Origin: a phage
Sequence record: OZ346212.1
Strand: one strand, 5' to 3'
DNA: 64,000 nt
Part shown: piece after piece, positions 11,274 to 62,657 of the stretch
Numbering within the stretch: position 1 is the stretch's first letter
How the letters are laid out: every line of letters begins with the position of its first letter
Made by a program: the position numbers and the translations under genes
Notes under the pieces: model-generated
Told to the model about the DNA's origin: nothing
Databases searched by the model: none
Seen by the model: only the letters and a program-made list of their open reading frames with translations

Positions 11274-11599
11274 CAGAGATCATCATTTCAACTGCAGGGT
11301 ATGTATTCCTGACAATCATTGCACTGGCTATTTTGGTGACAGTGTATGGGTTTGTTATCCTTCCTATCCTTGAGACATTTAGTTTGTGTCGGTGTTGGAG
11401 AAAAGCTTACGGTCCACAACCATGGAAGGACTGGCCCCACCTGGTGCGCTTAGCGTTCTCTTATGCTTACGATCACTCCAGTAGTGCATGCATAACCGGA
11501 TACCACGCCCACAACTGGAGCTGGGAAGGGTTGAGGAAATGGAATGTTACAAAGACCATACCTCTGCGCATGTACAAACCTAAAAACAAAGACAACTGA
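11270..11599 (+). CDS. hypothetical membrane protein
   Basis: N-terminal hydrophobic segment (IISTAGYVFLTIIALAILVTVYGFVILPIL); ATGA overlap. Confidence 0.5.
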   Translation: MTEIIISTAGYVFLTIIALAILVTVYGFVILPILETFSLCRCWRKAYGPQPWKDWPHLVRLAFSYAYDHSSSACITGYHAHNWSWEGLRKWNVTKTIPLRMYKPKNKDN

Positions 11600-12780
11600 T
11601 ACTTGAAAATTCCTGGCATATCAAGTATAAGGGGGATTTCTAAAATGGATTTCCTCCTTTTGATATTTCACCGGGCTGGATATTTTAAAATTCTTAGAAA
11701 ATCAGAAAATGGATCGAAAACTAAAATGGATTTTTCAGAGTAGGCGCGACAAGCTGAATAACTCATCCTATCGTTTGCACCATATTCCAGGCCACCATTA
11801 TAGATTTCCCACACATGCTAACCTCTCCCTACTAGAACTTCCTCCACTTACCCTTGACCTTCTATGGTAACAATCTAACCGCTATCTTGAAGTTGCGGTG
11901 CAGCTTTCCAGGTACTCGATCTACTTTTCATTTCAGGGCTTGGATTTTCTGAAAATTTTTCTCGATAAATTTCTCAGTACTCGATCTGTTTTTCGTTTTC
12001 TGAATCGGATTTTCTGGAAATCGTTCCGGCTCTCAACCTGAAATTTTTGGGGACGAAATCGATTTTTCGTTTTCAGAAATGGATTTTTAAAATTTCTATA
12101 TGGGAATATTTTAGTGGATACTGTTTTATAGGAAATTGTTACGGAGGGTAATTAGCATGCTAATTAAATTTATTAAATGCGAGGAGTTCTCATTTAGAAT
12201 TTTGAATGATAATCATTCTCGTTTGCAGAATAACGGGCAGGCCCGGTGATTGTCTCCCGGCCCCTGTTGCCCCGGCTTGTTATTATAGTATCACACAGGA
12301 CAAAGAAAGCAAGGACTTTTTGCATAAATTTTTAAATGATAATGATAACCGTTCTCATTTTATGCAGCGCCCATCCCCGGTGGTTGTCTCCCCCGTCACC
12401 GGTGCCTGCCGTCCTTTCGATATGTATATTGTGCCACCTGGCGGGGCCGCTGTCAACACTTTTCAAAAAATTTTTCTAACCTGGTGCGCTAACCGTTGCA
12501 ACCTGGCGGGGCCAGCCTGGCAGGACCTAACTGACCAGGTAGGGGAGAATGAAGGCTTGTAAACCTGGTGGGCCTATGCTACAGGATAGGTAACAATTGA
12601 AGAGGAGGTACAAAAATGATATGATCCCCCTGGAAAATGTAGCTATTAATGACTCTGAGGCTATCGCCCTGGTTGAAAAGGCTATGGCGGGAGCGTTGGA
12701 ACATAAAGAAGAGTACGAAAATGGTGGTTAACCTGGCGGGGGCGGCAGGTGGATTCTATCATAAAAATAATTTAAAATAG
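11600..12780. other. non-coding repeat-rich island
   Basis: About 1.2 kb without a convincing ORF; degenerate GGATTTTCTGRAAA / TACTCGATCT repeats, two tandem units with Fur-box-like GATAATGATAA sites, repeated CCTGGCGGGGC motif. Confidence 0.6.
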
Positions 12781-12861
12781 TAGTTGACAACAAGGTTAAT
12801 CATGGTATTATTACCCTACAAGGTGAACAACACCGCACTAACCAGTAAAGAGGATAAATTT

Positions 12862-13059
12862 ATGAACGCATACGGGATCAAAGTACGTCGCAACACTCGC
12901 CAGGTGGTCACCAATCAAGTGATTTGCCGGGTGGATGTAACCATCAACAACGGGCAAGGCCTTTATAAATTTCGTCGCGGTCATAGCTATACCCTGCAAC
13001 AGCTTAATCGTTGCGCCCTGACAAAAGGTCAGATCAACCACTGGTTTAATAAAAAATAA
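12862..13059 (+). CDS. hypothetical protein (65 aa)
   Basis: ATG 12862 after AAGAGGA; track ORF start 12784 is the promoter -35 TTG. Confidence 0.5.
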   Translation: MNAYGIKVRRNTRQVVTNQVICRVDVTINNGQGLYKFRRGHSYTLQQLNRCALTKGQINHWFNKK

Positions 13060-13062
13060 GTA

Positions 13063-13091
13063 TTGACATACAGTCAGACACCAAATACACT
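13063..13091 (+). promoter_or_regulatory. sigma70-type promoter (TTGACA-17-TACACT)
   Basis: -35/-10 hexamers 61 nt upstream of ATG 13124. Confidence 0.5.
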
Positions 13092-13123
13092 AAAAGCACA
13101 AAAGACACTAAGAGGATAAAATC

Positions 13124-13309
13124 ATGAAAACCACTACCTTTAATTTTGATAATGCAGACTTTTCTTTTTCTGATGTCAAGAACTGCCGCCGTGATCGTGG
13201 ATTTTACAAGGCTTATAATCTGGTGGGCCTGGACGATGACAATAATTTGCACGAAGTAGCTGAGATCCAGCTTGACAGATTGGACGGGAAAGTACTAAAA
13301 ACTTATTGA
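13124..13309 (+). CDS. hypothetical protein (61 aa)
   Basis: SD AAGAGGA then ATG. Confidence 0.55.
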   Translation: MKTTTFNFDNADFSFSDVKNCRRDRGFYKAYNLVGLDDDNNLHEVAEIQLDRLDGKVLKTY

Positions 13310-13310
13310 G

Positions 13311-13357
13311 TTTATTTTTAGATGGCCTTGACACCAGGGCCATCAATAAAGTAAACT
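13311..13357 (+). repeat. intergenic palindromic element, copy 1 (GATGGCC-TTGACACCA-GGCCATC)
   Basis: TTATTTTTAGATGGCCTTGACACCAGGGCCATCAATAAAGTAAAC; near-identical copies at 13933 and 17650, degenerate copy at 14266. Confidence 0.7.
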
Positions 13358-13509
13358 AACCACAGTTGAGCGGAAAAGGAGGCTTAAAGATGAGCACTAC
13401 ACGCCAGCACACAAAGGTAACCATCATCGTTTGCATCATTGGGTACATCCTGGCGCAAATGTTGATGGGTAGCGCCAACGGTGTCGCAAAATTTTTCTTA
13501 AACTTTTAA

Positions 13510-13537
13510 TTGACAAGCTAACTTAAATCGATATAAT
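13510..13537 (+). promoter_or_regulatory. sigma70-type promoter (TTGACA-16-TATAAT)
   Basis: Consensus hexamers about 79 nt upstream of ATG 13589. Confidence 0.6.
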
Positions 13538-13588
13538 AAGCACATAAACGGGAAAACTTCCCAGAACACACAAAAGGAGAAAAACACC

Positions 13589-13930
13589 ATGACTACTATG
13601 ACCGCCTCAGAAAAAGCTATGCAGATCGCTGAACTGAAAAAACAGATCGCAGACCTTGAGAATAAGATCGATAACTTTGAAATCGACGAGGACAAGTACG
13701 ACGAAAACTATGATGAATGGTTAGACGAGATCTACGGCGAAATTATGATCGGAAACATTTCTTTTCTTCCGTCGCGTATCCTCAAGGAGCTAGATCCTAT
13801 CGCTTACCGCTGCGGATTTAGCGACTACATCGACAGCCTGGATATTGAGGACGATGAAGAATACCAGGAATTACAGACAGAGTTAGAAGAAGCAAAAGAA
13901 GAGCTTGCGGAGCTGGAAGAAAACGAGTAA
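13589..13930 (+). CDS. hypothetical acidic coiled-coil protein (113 aa)
   Basis: SD AAGGAGA; D/E-rich with heptad-like N-terminus. Confidence 0.55.
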   Translation: MTTMTASEKAMQIAELKKQIADLENKIDNFEIDEDKYDENYDEWLDEIYGEIMIGNISFLPSRILKELDPIAYRCGFSDYIDSLDIEDDEEYQELQTELEEAKEELAELEENE

Positions 13931-13932
13931 GC

Positions 13933-13978
13933 TTATTTTTAGATGGCCTTGACACCAGGGCCATCAATAAAGTAAACT
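13933..13978 (+). repeat. intergenic palindromic element, copy 2
   Basis: Identical core to copy 1, directly after stop of 13589-13930. Confidence 0.7.
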
Positions 13979-14019
13979 TTATACTGTTAACACTGAACTA
14001 ATGCATAGGAGTTAAAACC

Positions 14020-14265
14020 ATGGCAGCACTAATCACCAAATATTATGCCCCTACCAACACCAAAAGCGCCCGTATCATGGTAAAAGGCTTCGGACGTAAA
14101 AAGGTGTACACCTGGGATTATGCCTTAGACACGGAAGACAACTACACCAACGCAATGACCGATTTTATTAATGAACTAAATAAGCAGATCTTGACAAGTT
14201 ATAAAGTGACCGATATTGCTTATATAGGTGAAGGCGGGATCTGTTTTGTAGGCATTGTGAAATAG
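14020..14265 (+). CDS. hypothetical protein (81 aa)
   Basis: SD TAGGAG then ATG. Confidence 0.55.
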   Translation: MAALITKYYAPTNTKSARIMVKGFGRKKVYTWDYALDTEDNYTNAMTDFINELNKQILTSYKVTDIAYIGEGGICFVGIVK

Positions 14266-14339
14266 TTATTTTTTCGGTGGTCCTGGTTGCAGGGCCATCT
14301 ATAAAGATAATTTATTAACACCATGAAAGGAGAAAGTAC

Positions 14340-14693
14340 ATGATCAGCGGGGCAAGTTTTATTATTGGCGCTATTGCTACGGCTTTAATTGTAAATAAGA
14401 TCCAGGATAAAAAGGAAAGAGGAAGTACCGCCCTTGCAGAATATCCATTTTGGGCATTCAACGATAACGAAGATTATATTATAAAGTATAAAAATAAAGA
14501 AGGTGACCAAGTAACACCGCGACCGATCCCGGCTTACAAAATGCAGGAAACACTATACCGCCTGGAGGCGGGTGGCGCAAAAATTGTAGACTTTTGGGGA
14601 TACGACCACACAGATCAGGAAGTTATAAAGCGCCGTATCCGGGCTATTCAGGCCAATATTGAAGTTAGCAAGGGGGGAATATATGAAAATTAA
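14340..14693 (+). CDS. hypothetical protein with N-terminal transmembrane segment
   Basis: SD AAAGGAGAAAG; hydrophobic N-terminus SFIIGAIATALIV. Confidence 0.55.
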   Translation: MISGASFIIGAIATALIVNKIQDKKERGSTALAEYPFWAFNDNEDYIIKYKNKEGDQVTPRPIPAYKMQETLYRLEAGGAKIVDFWGYDHTDQEVIKRRIRAIQANIEVSKGGIYEN

Positions 14694-14888: not shown

Positions 14889-14917
14889 GCCCCGCCATTG
14901 TGCGGGGCTTTTTATTT
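14889..14917 (+). terminator. rho-independent terminator
   Basis: GCCCCGC-cattgt-GCGGGGC followed by TTTTTATTT. Confidence 0.7.
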
Positions 14918-17306: not shown

Positions 17307-17338
17307 GGCCCCCGATCCCTGGGGGGCCTAACTTTTTT
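17307..17338 (+). terminator. rho-independent terminator
   Basis: GGCCCCC-gatccct-GGGGGGCC followed by TAACTTTTTTC. Confidence 0.65.
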
Positions 17339-18270: not shown

Positions 18271-18555
18271 ATGGCTATTGTTACCGCTGGCGATGTAGTA
18301 GAAATGGAAGCAAAATACTTAAAAGCGGGTATGCATATCCTACGCAACGATCTTGAACTGGTCCTGACAATGGTTGACTATAACCCAGGGCAAGATTATC
18401 CAAGTGTTGACTACTTTTTTGAGTATGTTGATGAAGAGTTGAAAGAGGATGAGGCCTATTGCGGTGAGTTCTGCAACTTCTTTTGTCCTGATGAGGTTGT
18501 AAAGGTTATCTATCAACCTGGCGTAGCTTTCCCGCTGCACGCTATCAATAAATAA
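18271..18555 (+). CDS. hypothetical protein (94 aa)
   Basis: SD TAGGAG then ATG. Confidence 0.55.
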   Translation: MAIVTAGDVVEMEAKYLKAGMHILRNDLELVLTMVDYNPGQDYPSVDYFFEYVDEELKEDEAYCGEFCNFFCPDEVVKVIYQPGVAFPLHAINK

Positions 18556-18559
18556 ACCT

Positions 18560-18590
18560 GGCGGGGCCGAAAAGGCCCCCGCCTGAAATT
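18560..18590 (+). terminator. terminator-like hairpin
   Basis: GGCGGGGCC-gaaaa-GGCCCCCGCC directly after stop; weak U-tract. Confidence 0.45.
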
Positions 18591-19444: not shown

Positions 19445-20436
19445 AAGCACATAGCCGCCAGATCTCAGAATTTACGTACGCTCACCAGTCTATAGCCTGC
19501 TAAGTATTTATTCCAACCATAGAATAACGGAATAGTCAATACCTGCATAAAATAATTATTCGTGTAAACTGCATAACATAAATCGGCTAGGATGTCAACA
19601 TTTTTCGTAAACAGCTCGAAATTATAACGGTGAGTTATAATAAACAGAGAAATCTTTAGTCGTCTAATGTTTACTGTACATTACTATACTGACTGGAATC
19701 ATTAGATGACTAAGAGAAAGATAAGAAATCATTAACAATGCAATTGTTTTATTCGTAACAATAAGGCAACTATGCAAACGGATGGCATGGCGCGACGGAG
19801 TCGCGACATAATATAAAAGCAGTAACCATCACCCCCGTGATAGTTTGTCTGCAAACTATTAATCAGATCATAGTTGCCTTGTATTTAGTTAATCATGACA
19901 TAACAAGCAAGGCAACTATAGATCTGCTAATAGTTGCCCTGCTTTTATATTATGTCATAGATTATTAGCCTGTTAATTGTTAGTCAGTCAAATCAACAAC
20001 GTTATCATTTCAGTCTTTATTGTTGTTGATCGTTATTGTTATCATGCAAACGAATGGCATGGCTTATCATTTTTGAGTAAACAATCTATACGTGAACAGT
20101 GAGGCAAGTTAGCAGCCGATAGATTAGATATTAACCTGCAGACTTCTGACCGTCTAGACGTCTAAACGCCCACACAACAAGGATTATACATACAATACTG
20201 AATGTAAACAGGGCCGCAAAAATGCTACCATACCACAGATTGTAAATTTTTCATGCAGCACTTGACAAAGAGGAGAACTTAATTTTATCAGGATAGGCAA
20301 GAATGTCAAGGCATGACTGCTCACTAAACAAGCAAACAGTCATGTGTGGGAGGTAAGTGATTGTGGTGGTAGGAAATTTAGTTGAAAGATGTGTTATAGG
20401 TGCTTCCAGCACTTTAGCCGGGCAGCTAATTGTGTG
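19445..20436. other. convergent-transcription junction, AT-rich with hairpins and direct repeats
   Basis: No ORF; palindromes ATAGTTGCCTTG...CAAGGCAACTAT, CGCGAC-gga-GTCGCG, ATAGTTTG-tctg-CAAACTAT; direct repeat ATGCAAACG(G/A)ATGGCATGGC twice. Confidence 0.5.
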
Positions 20437-20652
20437 TCAGTCCAGCGGTTCATCCTCTACTTCACTGAAATCAATGTTCATGGTCTCTTCCCAACCATCG
20501 ATCTCAGCACAAGAGTGGAGTTCTTTAGGGTTTACTCCTAAAGCCTCAGCAACAGAGTCTATATTTAACACCTCTGGCAGGTATGATTCATCAAATTCAA
20601 GGTAAATCAGGCCACGAGTGTTGTCAGCTCCACCAAATATTTCTATCTTCAT
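20437..20652 (-). CDS. hypothetical acidic protein (71 aa)
   Basis: Track ORF; last gene of the minus-strand block. Confidence 0.5.
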   Translation of the reverse strand: MKIEIFGGADNTRGLIYLEFDESYLPEVLNIDSVAEALGVNPKELHSCAEIDGWEETMNIDFSEVEDEPLD

Positions 20653-31874: not shown

Positions 31875-32159
31875 CTACCAGGTTACTGTCAAGTAGGCAA
31901 CCGTATTATTTTTCTCTGGGGAGATGCCAACAACATCTACCTGCAGACCTCCTGCCCTTAAATCTCCAACAATGTGCGGGAAGTAATCTGAGAGATGCGA
32001 GGGTAGATTTATCGAAAATCCGCACCCCAGAAAGCCTGCTAACGCTTTATTTTGTATCTCCCCTACAATCGCATCATAAATGGAGTTAAGCTCGTCAGGG
32101 AGCGTTACAGGACGTTTTAGCGCTAACTGGTGTAATTTGTCCTTAGCACTCATTTTCAT
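31875..32159 (-). CDS. hypothetical protein
   Basis: Internal Met (MKMSAKDK) gives 4-nt overlap with upstream gene; track ORF extends to 32189. Confidence 0.5.
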   Translation of the reverse strand: MKMSAKDKLHQLALKRPVTLPDELNSIYDAIVGEIQNKALAGFLGCGFSINLPSHLSDYFPHIVGDLRAGGLQVDVVGISPEKNNTVAYLTVTW

Positions 32160-32689
32160 TTCAGGTCTACCTCTGGTGGTGCCAACCACATAAATGGCGG
32201 CAAGCCTAAACGGTTTTTCTTATCCCACACAAAATATGCATATGCTTGCCCGTCAGTTCTGCCATTTGATTGAAAAGATGGACGCTTAGATATTGTGATC
32301 ACAGTGGTAGGTGCATTATCAAGCCACCATTCAAATCTGGCTTTGCTTTCCAGAAAATTAAGACGCAAAAGCATAATAACTACGTCAGCATCTTTCAACG
32401 CCTTGTCTACAAACTCACGAGCCAAACTGTATGGTGGGTTGGTGATAATACAGTCAACATGGTTGTATTCTGTATTCAGATAGTCAACACCTTCTTGGAT
32501 TTCTCCCCATGCAGATCCTAACGGCATACGGGAGTAGAACACACCTGAGGCACTATTCCTGCAAGGCTCTAAGTAGGTCCAGTCTTCTGGGAACGGAATA
32601 AGGTCATACAGCCCTTCTGCACACCACTCCGGTGTCACATACTCATCGTAGGCGTTACGTTGTTCATCAGGTTTTCGAGCACAAGTCAT
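32156..32689 (-). CDS. putative N6-adenine methyltransferase (NPPY motif)
   Basis: CIITNPPYSLAREF catalytic motif IV. Confidence 0.45.
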   Translation of the reverse strand: MTCARKPDEQRNAYDEYVTPEWCAEGLYDLIPFPEDWTYLEPCRNSASGVFYSRMPLGSAWGEIQEGVDYLNTEYNHVDCIITNPPYSLAREFVDKALKDADVVIMLLRLNFLESKARFEWWLDNAPTTVITISKRPSFQSNGRTDGQAYAYFVWDKKNRLGLPPFMWLAPPEVDLK

Positions 32690-32740
32690 GCAAATCTCCA
32701 GATCATAAAAGCCCTCCGAAGAGGGCTTTAGAATTAATGT

Positions 32741-46307: not shown

Positions 46308-46766
46308 TTAGAAGTTTGTTTTTACACGTCCCTTTTCATCAACCTCGTTGTTGGCTAGAAGCGTTACAAAGTCTGTGAAACGGACATGAAGAACTCTTTT
46401 CTTATCAAGGTATCCTAAAGCCACCCCTGAGAAATTTAGCATCAAAGGGGCTAAAGAAGCTCTGGCACTGAAATGCTGTTGTTCTACCCTTCCAACACCC
46501 TTAGTGTAGGATGGGTTAAGATTGTAAGTTCTGAATCCCAGTTTTGTTGGAGCTTTAGAATTAAAAACAACTTTATAGCGTTTCTTACTCAACTTATGCT
46601 CCAGGATAAGCATTCCCTTATCACCCTTGATAAGTTGAAAATCTGTAAAGTGCTCTTTTAATACGAAAGGTAGTGCCAGTCCCATCGCCTGCCCCCTTTG
46701 TACCGCTGTCTCACCAAAAGCTTTTGCATCAGTAAGTTCTTTGGTCAAGTCTATGCTTTTGATCAT
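46308..46766 (-). CDS. hypothetical protein (152 aa)
   Basis: Track ORF. Confidence 0.5.
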   Translation of the reverse strand: MIKSIDLTKELTDAKAFGETAVQRGQAMGLALPFVLKEHFTDFQLIKGDKGMLILEHKLSKKRYKVVFNSKAPTKLGFRTYNLNPSYTKGVGRVEQQHFSARASLAPLMLNFSGVALGYLDKKRVLHVRFTDFVTLLANNEVDEKGRVKTNF

Positions 46767-47577
46767 ACCTAGTCTCCAAAATGTATTGTAGTTCTTTCTT
46801 ACCTATACTCTTCATTCCGGCAGTCTTACCTGCTTCTTCTTGAAAAGAAGAATAGCATTCAGCAAACACTCTGTCAACACCGTCAACTAAAGATTTTATG
46901 AAATATGTTGATTCTTCAGATTTTGGGTCATCCTCCCCCAATACTTTTCCAGCATTATACCCAACACGTCTTACACAGAAGTCGTAGTCATCTGGAGTGC
47001 TAAAAGAAAATAACTTATTCTCCCCAATCTCTACAGGATCCCTGTTGCACGCCTTTTTCTCCCAAATTTGGAAAACACACGGCACGTCATAAGGTTTGCC
47101 ATTAAGTAGAAACGAGTTCTTAGGGCACCTTTCACTGTAGACAAGGTGCATCGACATGTCCAGTTTGTTTGCAAAAAATATTTTTTCAAATGTCCGTGGC
47201 AAGATGAAGGCTATAGCCCCTCCAAGCTCTAGCAATGATGCACAATGGTTAAAGAATTTGCAAGCTAAAGATGAATTCTTGCCAAATGGTGGGTTACCTA
47301 TGAAGACATCTGCCTTGGGATGCACCTCCAAGAAGTTTGCCTGAATGCACGGTGTTGGTCCTTCAAATTCAGGATCTGGTACTAGATCGTAAGACAGTAT
47401 CTCTGAAAATAGTTTTGAAAAAGAACCCCTTCCAGCAGAAGGCTCAACGTATGCACAATTTCCATACTTATCTTTTACTTTACCAACAAGATATTCTGCA
47501 TACTCAGGGTTTGTGTAATATTTGTCGTTGGACTCTTTCTTGCTCAAAGTGCCTCCAAAAGGAAAAGGGAGGCGCAA
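46729..47577 (-). CDS. putative adenine-specific DNA methyltransferase
   Basis: AdoMet-binding-like PSAGRGSFSKLF and catalytic DVFIGNPPFG. Confidence 0.5.
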   Translation of the reverse strand: MRLPFPFGGTLSKKESNDKYYTNPEYAEYLVGKVKDKYGNCAYVEPSAGRGSFSKLFSEILSYDLVPDPEFEGPTPCIQANFLEVHPKADVFIGNPPFGKNSSLACKFFNHCASLLELGGAIAFILPRTFEKIFFANKLDMSMHLVYSERCPKNSFLLNGKPYDVPCVFQIWEKKACNRDPVEIGENKLFSFSTPDDYDFCVRRVGYNAGKVLGEDDPKSEESTYFIKSLVDGVDRVFAECYSSFQEEAGKTAGMKSIGKKELQYILETRYDQKHRLDQRTY

Positions 47578-47593
47578 GCCTCCCTATACTTGA

Positions 47594-62553: not shown

Positions 62554-62650
62554 GCTAGGTAAGCCCTTTGGCAAGGGCGAGGATTTTTAATCCTGAAAAT
62601 AGACGAGGTAGTCGTTGAATACATAGGTGGTTCGATTCCATCACCTAGCA
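62554..62650 (+). tRNA. atypical 97-nt tRNA-like gene (possibly Lys-UUU with about 29-nt variable region) or pseudo-tRNA
   Basis: Perfect acceptor GCTAGGT/ACCTAGC, D-arm GCCC...GGGC, hairpin with loop TTTTTAA, extra hairpin ACGA-ggtag-TCGT, T-arm GGTGG-TTCGATT-CCATC; no encoded CCA. Confidence 0.35.
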
Positions 62651-62657
62651 CCTTTTT

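Follow-up and report, generated by a model that had tools for sequence, protein, structure and literature searches.

What function, if any, is served by a GC-rich word that returns unchanged in the early region of a lytic phage genome? The question is raised by the 12-mer CCTGGCGGGGCC in a 64-kb stretch of DNA (64,000 nucleotides (nt) of sequence record OZ346212.1, hereafter the window), which according to its sequence matches belongs to Vequintavirus, i.e., to an rV5-like myophage of E. coli. The original prediction had pointed to four copies of a motif of 11-12 nt at 12437-12743 and to a fifth one in a terminator hairpin at 18557, proposing that such repetition in an AT-rich genome implies function, either as a protein site or as an RNA structural module. 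As suggested by our analysis, CCTGGCGGGGCC may be a module that forms the stems of leader and intergenic RNA hairpins in the early transcripts, a reading that we favour tentatively and with a confidence somewhat short of even. As a regulatory hairpin word, the motif would be nothing unusual in kind, and it is of modest interest.

The recurrence of the motif was borne out by the sequence statistics. Exact copies of CCTGGCGGGGCC were found at 12437-12448 (copy 1), 12502-12513 (copy 2) and 18557-18568 (copy 5), all three on the plus strand of the window, against an expectation of 0.00 in 100 dinucleotide-preserving shuffles. The 11-mer with up to two mismatches had 18 matches (5.65 expected; none of the shuffles reached 18), and the extended word AACCTGGYG was observed nine times against 0.75 expected, so that a frequency due to chance is ruled out. 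The plus strand also carries the variant CCTGGTGGGCC at 12564-12574 (copy 3), CCTGGCGGGGG with one mismatch at 12732-12742 (copy 4) and, as revealed by the word scan, a degenerate copy CCTGGTGCGC (AACCTGGTG) at 12480-12489. Hence, the predicted positions 12437, 12502 and 18557 were right, and those of the variant and of the fourth copy (12563 and 12733) needed correction by one base each. No further exact copy was present in the window or in 110.7 kb (81%) of the genome of phage EdH4, where CCTGGCGGGGCC is confined to the three homologous positions; the window and this sequence jointly span a whole genome. Copies 1 and 2 share 17 nt of identity that stops abruptly on either side (repeat family D4). 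They are spaced 65 nt apart and thus lie in different reading frames; a protein-coding repeat was rejected, as these copies are out of frame and the open reading frame (ORF) 12206-12562 shrinks to 7-132 amino acids in relatives. The genome is AT-rich only moderately, with a G+C content of 40-45% across the window. Nine CCWGG (Dcm/EcoRII) sites are crowded within 12437-12732 (296 nt), compared to at most three in any other 300-nt segment. No C5-cytosine methyltransferase motif was detected in the ORFs of at least 150 amino acids of the window, and thus no evidence ties this cluster to a phage Dcm-like enzyme.

The conservation of the copies in related phages was assessed in an alignment of 13 Vequintavirus relatives over 12100-12830. 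The stretch 12200-12460 was almost invariant and more conserved than the small ORF on its right. Copy 1 was unchanged in 11 of the 13 relatives, being altered in Alma and nomine only, and it was unchanged as well in EdH4, FV3, slur16 and V18. Copy 2 was exact in all relatives except Alma, which has lost it by a 14-nt deletion between two CCTGGC words, and copy 5 was exact in five genomes (the window, EdH4, FV3, slur16 and V18). The TTGCAA upstream of copy 2 varies (TCGGGA in slur16) while the motif stays. Copy 4 reads CCTGGCGAGGGC in most relatives, where it lies within a longer version of the small ORF. All three exact sites are therefore kept in diverged relatives in spite of mutations and deletions in their flanks, which supports the proposed link between repetition and function.

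Copies 2, 4 and 5 each form the 5' arm of a plus-strand hairpin, with a different 3' partner each time. In the hairpin built by copy 2 (12502-12524, plus strand; termed S2:S3), CCUG-G-CGGG is paired with CCUG-G-CAGG across a GCCAG loop, with a folding energy of -14.2 kcal/mol on the plus strand versus -7.3 kcal/mol on the minus strand. In nine distinct relatives 98.6% of the pair cells of this hairpin were kept; the five changes were all wobble changes, from G-C to G-U or from U-A to U-G, which preserve pairing in the RNA of the plus strand only. In slur16 both flanks of S2:S3 have changed and extend the stem by three pairs (GGA/UCC). A 48-nt deletion in FV3 and SYGMH1 (12516-12563) rebuilds a hairpin of the S2:S3 type, which retains the GCCAG loop and uses copy 3 as its 3' arm, because CCUG-G-CGGG, with wobble, complements another copy of itself. 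A neighbouring hairpin (S4:S5; 12534-12569, plus strand) pairs ACCAGGU with ACCUGGU in a deletion-prone stretch, and its 3' arm overlaps copy 3. Its folding energies are -15.2 and -9.1 kcal/mol on the plus and minus strands, and thus both hairpins are 5-7 kcal/mol more stable on the plus strand. The hairpin of copy 4 (12731-12750, plus strand; z = -3.8), formed by CCTGGCGGGGG with CGGCAGGU, begins at the stop codon of the small ORF. The hairpin of copy 5, GGCGGGGCC-GAAAA-GGCCCCCGCC (18557-18583, plus strand), is as real as predicted (-19.7 kcal/mol, z = -3.4) and starts 2 nt past the stop of the ORF 18271-18555.

The role of a terminator assigned earlier to the hairpin at 18557 was not supported. 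None of the motif hairpins is followed by a U-tract, the tails being UGAAAUUAUG (18557), GGAUUCUAUC and ACCUAACUGA, and the terminator scan reported no motif hairpin. Across relatives, the 3' arm of copy 5 takes the forms GGCCCCCGCC, GGCCCCCTCC, GGCCCCTCC, GGCCCC and GGCC, shrinking from 10 nt to 4 nt. Thus, out of the features of intrinsic terminators, the stable GC-rich stem is present, and the U-tract and the retention of both arms in relatives are absent; without U-tracts, these hairpins are not classical terminators. They share with Rho-independent terminators and mRNA-stabilising hairpins a GC-rich stem-loop on the transcribed strand that follows directly upon a stop codon (12731, 18557), and differ from them in the missing U-tract, in the unconserved 3' arm at 18557 and in a fixed 5'-arm sequence common to several sites, which is not a property of terminators. 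Canonical terminators with U-tracts were observed at 14889-14908 and 17307-17328, and their stems (GCCCCGCCA...CGGGGC and GGCCCCC...CCCTGGGGGGCC) are related to the motif, which makes the word part of a wider G4-5CC stem vocabulary in the early region. In phage lambda, boxB of nutR is a GC stem closed by a GAAAA pentaloop. The GC stem and GAAAA pentaloop of copy 5 recall this element; contrary to lambda, the loops of the other copies differ, the V18 loop is AAAAA, and no boxA-like element or N-like protein was identified. Only tRNAs reached the gathering score of Rfam in the whole window, and the best match within 11500-12900 had E = 0.68.

These observations are consistent with CCUGGCGGGGCC being a conserved, G-rich word used on the transcribed strand of the early-gene block. 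Its CCUG-G-CGGG core would pair, with G-U wobble, either with another copy of itself or with CCUGGCAGG, and by virtue of this wobble self-pairing each copy could nucleate a short GC-rich hairpin (12502-12524, 12731-12750 and 18557-18583). We infer that the sites, copies 1-3 included, are transcribed, and that the hairpins may act in early transcripts as RNA-end or processing barriers, or as pause elements. The repeated CCTGG words might double as short homologies at which deletions start and stop in several relatives. Copy 1 could be a derivative of the module that has been co-opted to space the hexamers of a conserved leftward promoter with GC-rich sequence.

Copy 1 fills the 17-nt spacer of the predicted sigma-70-type promoter P_as2 (12456-12428, minus strand; TGTTGACA-N17-(TGg)CACAAT), which reads TTGACA-N17-CACAAT, has 10 of 12 consensus matches and carries an extended -10 element. 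A minus-strand promoter (9-10 of 12 matches) stands at the position of P_as2 in 9 of 11 Fur-box/core units aligned from six genera; across these genera the hexamers and a spacing of 16-17 nt are kept, and the GC-rich spacer is variable in sequence. P_as2 also aligns with an early promoter of Certrevirus (consensus in PMC7344957), and in the comparison of 12400-12620 with the corresponding regions of other genera only the P_as2 alignment exceeded the shuffled controls. Copy 4 lies 41 nt upstream of the promoter TTGACA-16-TATTAT at 12784, and the promoter scan revealed no strong promoter near copies 2 and 5. The small ORF of 36 amino acids (12621-12731, plus strand; Shine-Dalgarno sequence GAGGAGG at 12602-12608) is the first gene right of the motif cluster. 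Its annotated length in relatives is 36-60 amino acids, and deletions of 7 nt and 2 nt have shortened it in the window.

A number of observations weigh against the hairpin module. Copy 1 has no local pairing partner; the notion of an RNA structural module fits copies 2, 4 and 5 as 5' arms of hairpins and not copy 1. The three hairpin loops differ (GCCAG, GGGG and GAAAA), i.e., there is no common structural motif. In slur16 and V18 the stem at 18557 has been reduced to 4-6 bp by decay of the 3' arm next to an exact 5' arm, which a function of the hairpin alone would not predict. S2:S3 shows no both-sided compensatory change, and its invariance is of limited power, the relatives being close (83-98% identity). 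The region 12190-12620 and its sub-windows fold like shuffled sequences (z = -0.1 to -0.7). The sole candidate for a plus-strand promoter of copies 1-3 is a weak promoter at the Fur-box-like site (8 of 12 matches).

The combination of a fixed 5' arm with variable and decaying 3' arms keeps a sequence-specific protein site as the main rival, although we regard it as unlikely. The 12-mer, or the 17-mer TGCMACCTGGCGGGGCC, would then be a DNA or RNA recognition site of a phage or host protein; binding at copy 1, which lies between the -35 and -10 elements of a strong promoter, would occlude P_as2, and the 65 bp between copies 1 and 2, about six helical turns, would make cooperative binding possible. 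In favour of such a site, it is the sequence and not the pairing that is kept: the motif at 18557 is exact in five genomes as its partner decays, copy 2 is conserved next to the unconserved TTGCAA, and the identity of copies 1 and 2 ends sharply on both sides. Moreover, Seunavirus phages carry TTGCAT-CCYGGCGGGG at another promoter. However, there is no known candidate protein, the DNA has no dyad symmetry, and the exact copies are only three in number and in a single orientation. The equivalent promoter spacers of other genera are likewise GC-rich but divergent in sequence, which argues for composition rather than for a specific site.

The word alone is a small regulatory detail of one phage genus, and its value is that of a pointer to a 1-kb control region. 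The motif cluster sits in 11600-12600, where no gene is consistently annotated in relatives and which is conserved more strongly than the flanking genes; this unannotated, Fur-box-like control region is a more novel lead than the motif. The surrounding 11500-14500 is about 98% identical to phages Alma, naswa and EmilHeitz, with 126 phage records matched in total. The region contains two repeated units, each consisting of a Fur-box-like palindrome, the core CGGTG(A/G)TTGTCTC and a leftward promoter. In the first unit, the palindrome (12202-12231, plus strand; TGATAATCATTCTCG at 12207-12221) overlaps the candidate rightward promoter TTGAAT-N18-CAGAAT and is followed by P_as1 (12282-12312, minus strand; TTGCTT-N19-TATAAT), a weaker leftward promoter read from the sequence, the position of which is homologous to a minus-strand promoter in the cross-genus alignment A1. 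The second unit carries a Fur-box-like site at 12338-12356 (plus strand; GATAATGATAACCGTTCTC; families D5 and D18) that agrees with the classical Fur box at 16 of 19 positions. Two models of the Fur box, the 19-bp GATAATGATAATCATTATC and the 7-1-7 pattern TGATAATnATTATCA, have been described (PMC2189734), and the palindrome at 12207-12221 conforms to the latter at 13 of 15 positions (14 of 15 in other genera). Direct reading of the promoter of fhuA from E. coli K-12 revealed that the 16 consecutive bases ATAATCATTCTCGTTT (12209-12224) are identical to it. The fhuA gene is repressed by Fur. A distant BLAST of 12180-12470 against E. coli genomes returned nothing at E <= 1.

A distant BLAST search among phages retrieved unit 1 (12164-12313) at 71-88% identity in 248 records, including Phapecoctavirus, Seunavirus, Mydovirus, Certrevirus and Henunavirus, in none of which it is annotated; one to three Fur-box-like palindromes stand at the equivalent place in these five genera. 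Alignment A1 of the 11 units (six genera; loci L005-L007 and L021-L026) showed the palindrome AATGA(T/G)AATCATTCTCATT to be conserved and overlapped by the candidate rightward promoter TTGAAT-N18-CAGAAT. The predicted core, a Fur-box-like palindrome with convergent promoters, is shared by six Vequintavirinae genera and Phapecoctavirus. RNAalifold applied to the 11 units on both strands gave about -2.9 kcal/mol and no convincing helix, and scans of IMG/VR by a flanking protein or by a Fur-box pattern yielded only two loci each. The rV5 genome paper makes no mention of the 11600-12600 region or of Fur (PMC3606486), and a literature search revealed neither a description of Fur boxes in these phages nor transcriptomes of them. 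In the units at 12202-12312 and 12338-12456, the weak rightward promoter under the Fur box faces the conserved leftward one at a distance of 60-70 nt; the invariant core CGGTG(A/T)TTGTCTC lies within the overlap of the facing promoters, and the leftward transcripts would be G-rich and non-coding.

It is conceivable, if unlikely, that the motif hairpins represent the leader of an undescribed iron-sensing switch, and that the same 1-kb element might serve as an origin or as a DNA-entry boundary. Under this proposal the palindromes at 12202-12231 and 12338-12356 would be bound by the host Fur, which would control the rightward promoter opposing P_as1 and P_as2, so that the ratio of the two convergent transcripts at the start of the terminal early-gene block would depend on iron; the arrangement would be common to the lytic phages of Vequintavirinae and Phapecoctavirus. 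The palindromes (not the motif) resemble Fur-repressed promoters such as that of fhuA in the 7-1-7 pattern (TGATAATcATTcTCg here, TGATAATCATTCTCA in other genera), in the shared run of bases, in the placement of the box over a -35/-10 pair and in the presence of one to three tandem boxes. Contrary to those promoters, the putative boxes lie in a strictly lytic phage, in a region with no annotated gene, and face a convergent promoter. If Fur does bind, strictly lytic phages would read the iron status of the host at the start of infection, which would bear on phage performance in iron-poor settings such as host gut or tissue; studies on biocontrol or therapy are under way for several of these phages.

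A decidedly unlikely explanation holds that the word is functionless, a GC-rich homology left by, and still mediating, the illegitimate or homologous recombination of early-region regulatory cassettes and kept by descent. The deletions in Alma (14 nt) and in FV3 and SYGMH1 (48 nt) have both their ends precisely at CCTGG(C) repeats, and the stretch 12534-12569 is affected by deletions in HMD-6 and slur16 as well. To the right of copy 4, the promoter and gene at 12784-12830 occur as two alleles among relatives, and the window is about 690 bp shorter than Alma over the matched stretch, both of which point to mosaic exchange. Promoter-early stem-loop (PeSL) cassettes of T4-like phages have been described as composite elements of a promoter and a stem-loop that mediate such shuffling (PMC2839356, PMC4122927). 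Neutral scars, however, should drift, and the three 12-mers are identical although the intergenic DNA of the lineages differs by 6-12%; there are only three such copies, compared to PeSL series across hyperplastic regions, and most early promoters and terminators of the window lack the word.

The comparison with PeSLs applies to the hairpin module as well. In both systems short conserved GC-rich stem-loops are found beside sigma-70 early promoters close to consensus, within a plastic set of small early ORFs, and indels among relatives start and stop at repeated sequence, as observed here at the CCTGG repeats of Alma, FV3 and SYGMH1. PeSLs, however, are serial cassettes that couple a terminator to a promoter, whereas here three exact copies are present, only copy 4 stands just upstream of a strong promoter (41 nt from the TTGACA at 12784), U-tracts are missing from the hairpins, and another copy is part of a promoter spacer. 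The word departs from the PeSL definition in that its copies are few (three exact and about three degenerate ones in the window and the 110.7 kb of EdH4), and probably also in the coupling of its hairpins to promoters, which is not consistent.

We consider it quite improbable that the copies belong to a cis-acting DNA element spanning the 1-kb region, an idea put forward by analogy. Such an element could be a replication origin, with iteron-like repeats, an A/T tract and G-rich leftward primer transcripts, or a boundary resembling the injection stop of T5, on the inner margin of the terminal block of early genes. At 11902-12087 (families D1 and D2), on the left of the non-coding region, a unit of 65-74 nt (...CTCGATC...TTTTCGTTTTC...GGATTTT...) is repeated three times in tandem in degenerate form; the presence of GATC sites in these repeats, of an A6T5 tract and of host-factor palindromes, together with conservation above that of the flanking genes and across genera, would fit an element of this kind. 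Tandem repeats of the same type were read in loci of Seunavirus, Mydovirus, Certrevirus and Henunavirus. The rV5 genome paper listed 33 promoters and 20 terminators and found no origin (PMC3606486). The iss region of T5, a conserved untranslated repeat region of 1.2-1.7 kb with host-factor boxes, is located at 7.9% of the genome (bioRxiv 10.1101/866236). Like iss, the region described here is non-coding over about 1 kb or more, contains direct repeats, palindromes and boxes of host-factor type, exceeds its neighbouring genes in conservation and borders a terminal block of small early genes on the inner side. It differs from iss in having no sequence similarity to it and in carrying Fur-like boxes instead of DnaA boxes; rV5-like phages are not known to inject their DNA in two steps, and the terminal repeat here measures 459 bp versus about 10 kb. 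No DnaA boxes are present, and copy 5 at 18557 lies outside the region.

The placement of the region relative to the genome ends was derived from EdH4. The two ends of the record of this phage are a 459-nt direct repeat, close to the terminal redundancy of 458 bp reported earlier (PMC6563267), and the homolog of this repeat was found at 20107-20277 of the window, flanked by sequences that adjoin the left and right EdH4 ends (19451-20550 compared). Judged from this homology, the physical genome ends probably fall near 20107-20277, at the turning point of the GC skew. The distance of the non-coding region from one genome end is accordingly about 7.5-8.6 kb, with the region on the inner margin of the small-early-gene block, and the possibility that it is itself a physical end was rejected, as the terminal-repeat homolog maps at about 20.1-20.3 kb. 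The 171-nt repeat piece at 20107-20277 was aligned in the orientation opposite to its flanks.

A chance effect of local GC-rich composition, in favour of which one could point to stems of similar composition in the terminators at 14889 and 17307 and to the 14-mer AACCTGGCGGGGCC, found in at least 120 unrelated IMG/VR contigs with one match each (uninformative in a collection of that size), has a negligible probability, being already refuted by the shuffle statistics of the exact 12-mer and of AACCTGGYG and by the retention of the copies at homologous positions in relatives.

Several known elements were compared with the word and rejected. The copies read CCTGGCGG or CCTGGTGG where the Chi site reads GCTGGTGG, i.e., there is a mismatch at the first base and, in the exact copies, a further one at position 6 (C for T). 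A sigma-54 promoter of the GG-N10-GC type (TGGCAC-N5-TTGCA) was checked by hand, and the GC was missing at the needed spacing at 12437, 12480, 12502 and 12516. Readings as an NtrC-like site or as an attenuator (hairpin with a U-run) were rejected by eye.

Tandem repeats, three to four in number and degenerate, precede the Fur boxes in all genera examined (window 11902-12087; L006 1-230, L021 1230-1450, L022 1230-1450 and L023 1210-1400); they carry GATC sites, TTTTCGTTTTC and A/T tracts and have an iteron-like look. A second GC-rich non-coding block (CTACCGGCGATCCACCTTCCGACC...GCCCCGCCTTTTCGCCGTGGGGTGGCG) is conserved in Seunavirus, Mydovirus, Certrevirus and Phapecoctavirus (L007 3150-3245, L022 1680-1810, L023 1680-1790 and L005 3190-3270). 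It has a leftward promoter of its own with a GC-rich spacer, followed in some genera by a minus-strand ORF of 60-88 amino acids. This block was not detected in the window, and the downstream minus-strand ORF of Seunavirus, Mydovirus and Phapecoctavirus has no homolog there.

Elsewhere in the window, the DPPY-type motif typical of N6/N4 DNA methyltransferases was observed in the minus-strand frames 32159-32740 and 46732-47583; the adenine methylase and the N6-adenine methyltransferase annotated in EdH4 lie outside the counterparts of these two frames. The tRNA cluster at 62.1-62.9 kb is the counterpart of the cluster annotated in EdH4. Within it, ARAGORN called a 99-nt tRNA of undefined identity with a four-base anticodon (atcc) at 62554-62652, to which Rfam assigned a tRNA score of 35.5 bits, and the same call is annotated in EdH4 as tRNA-OTHER.

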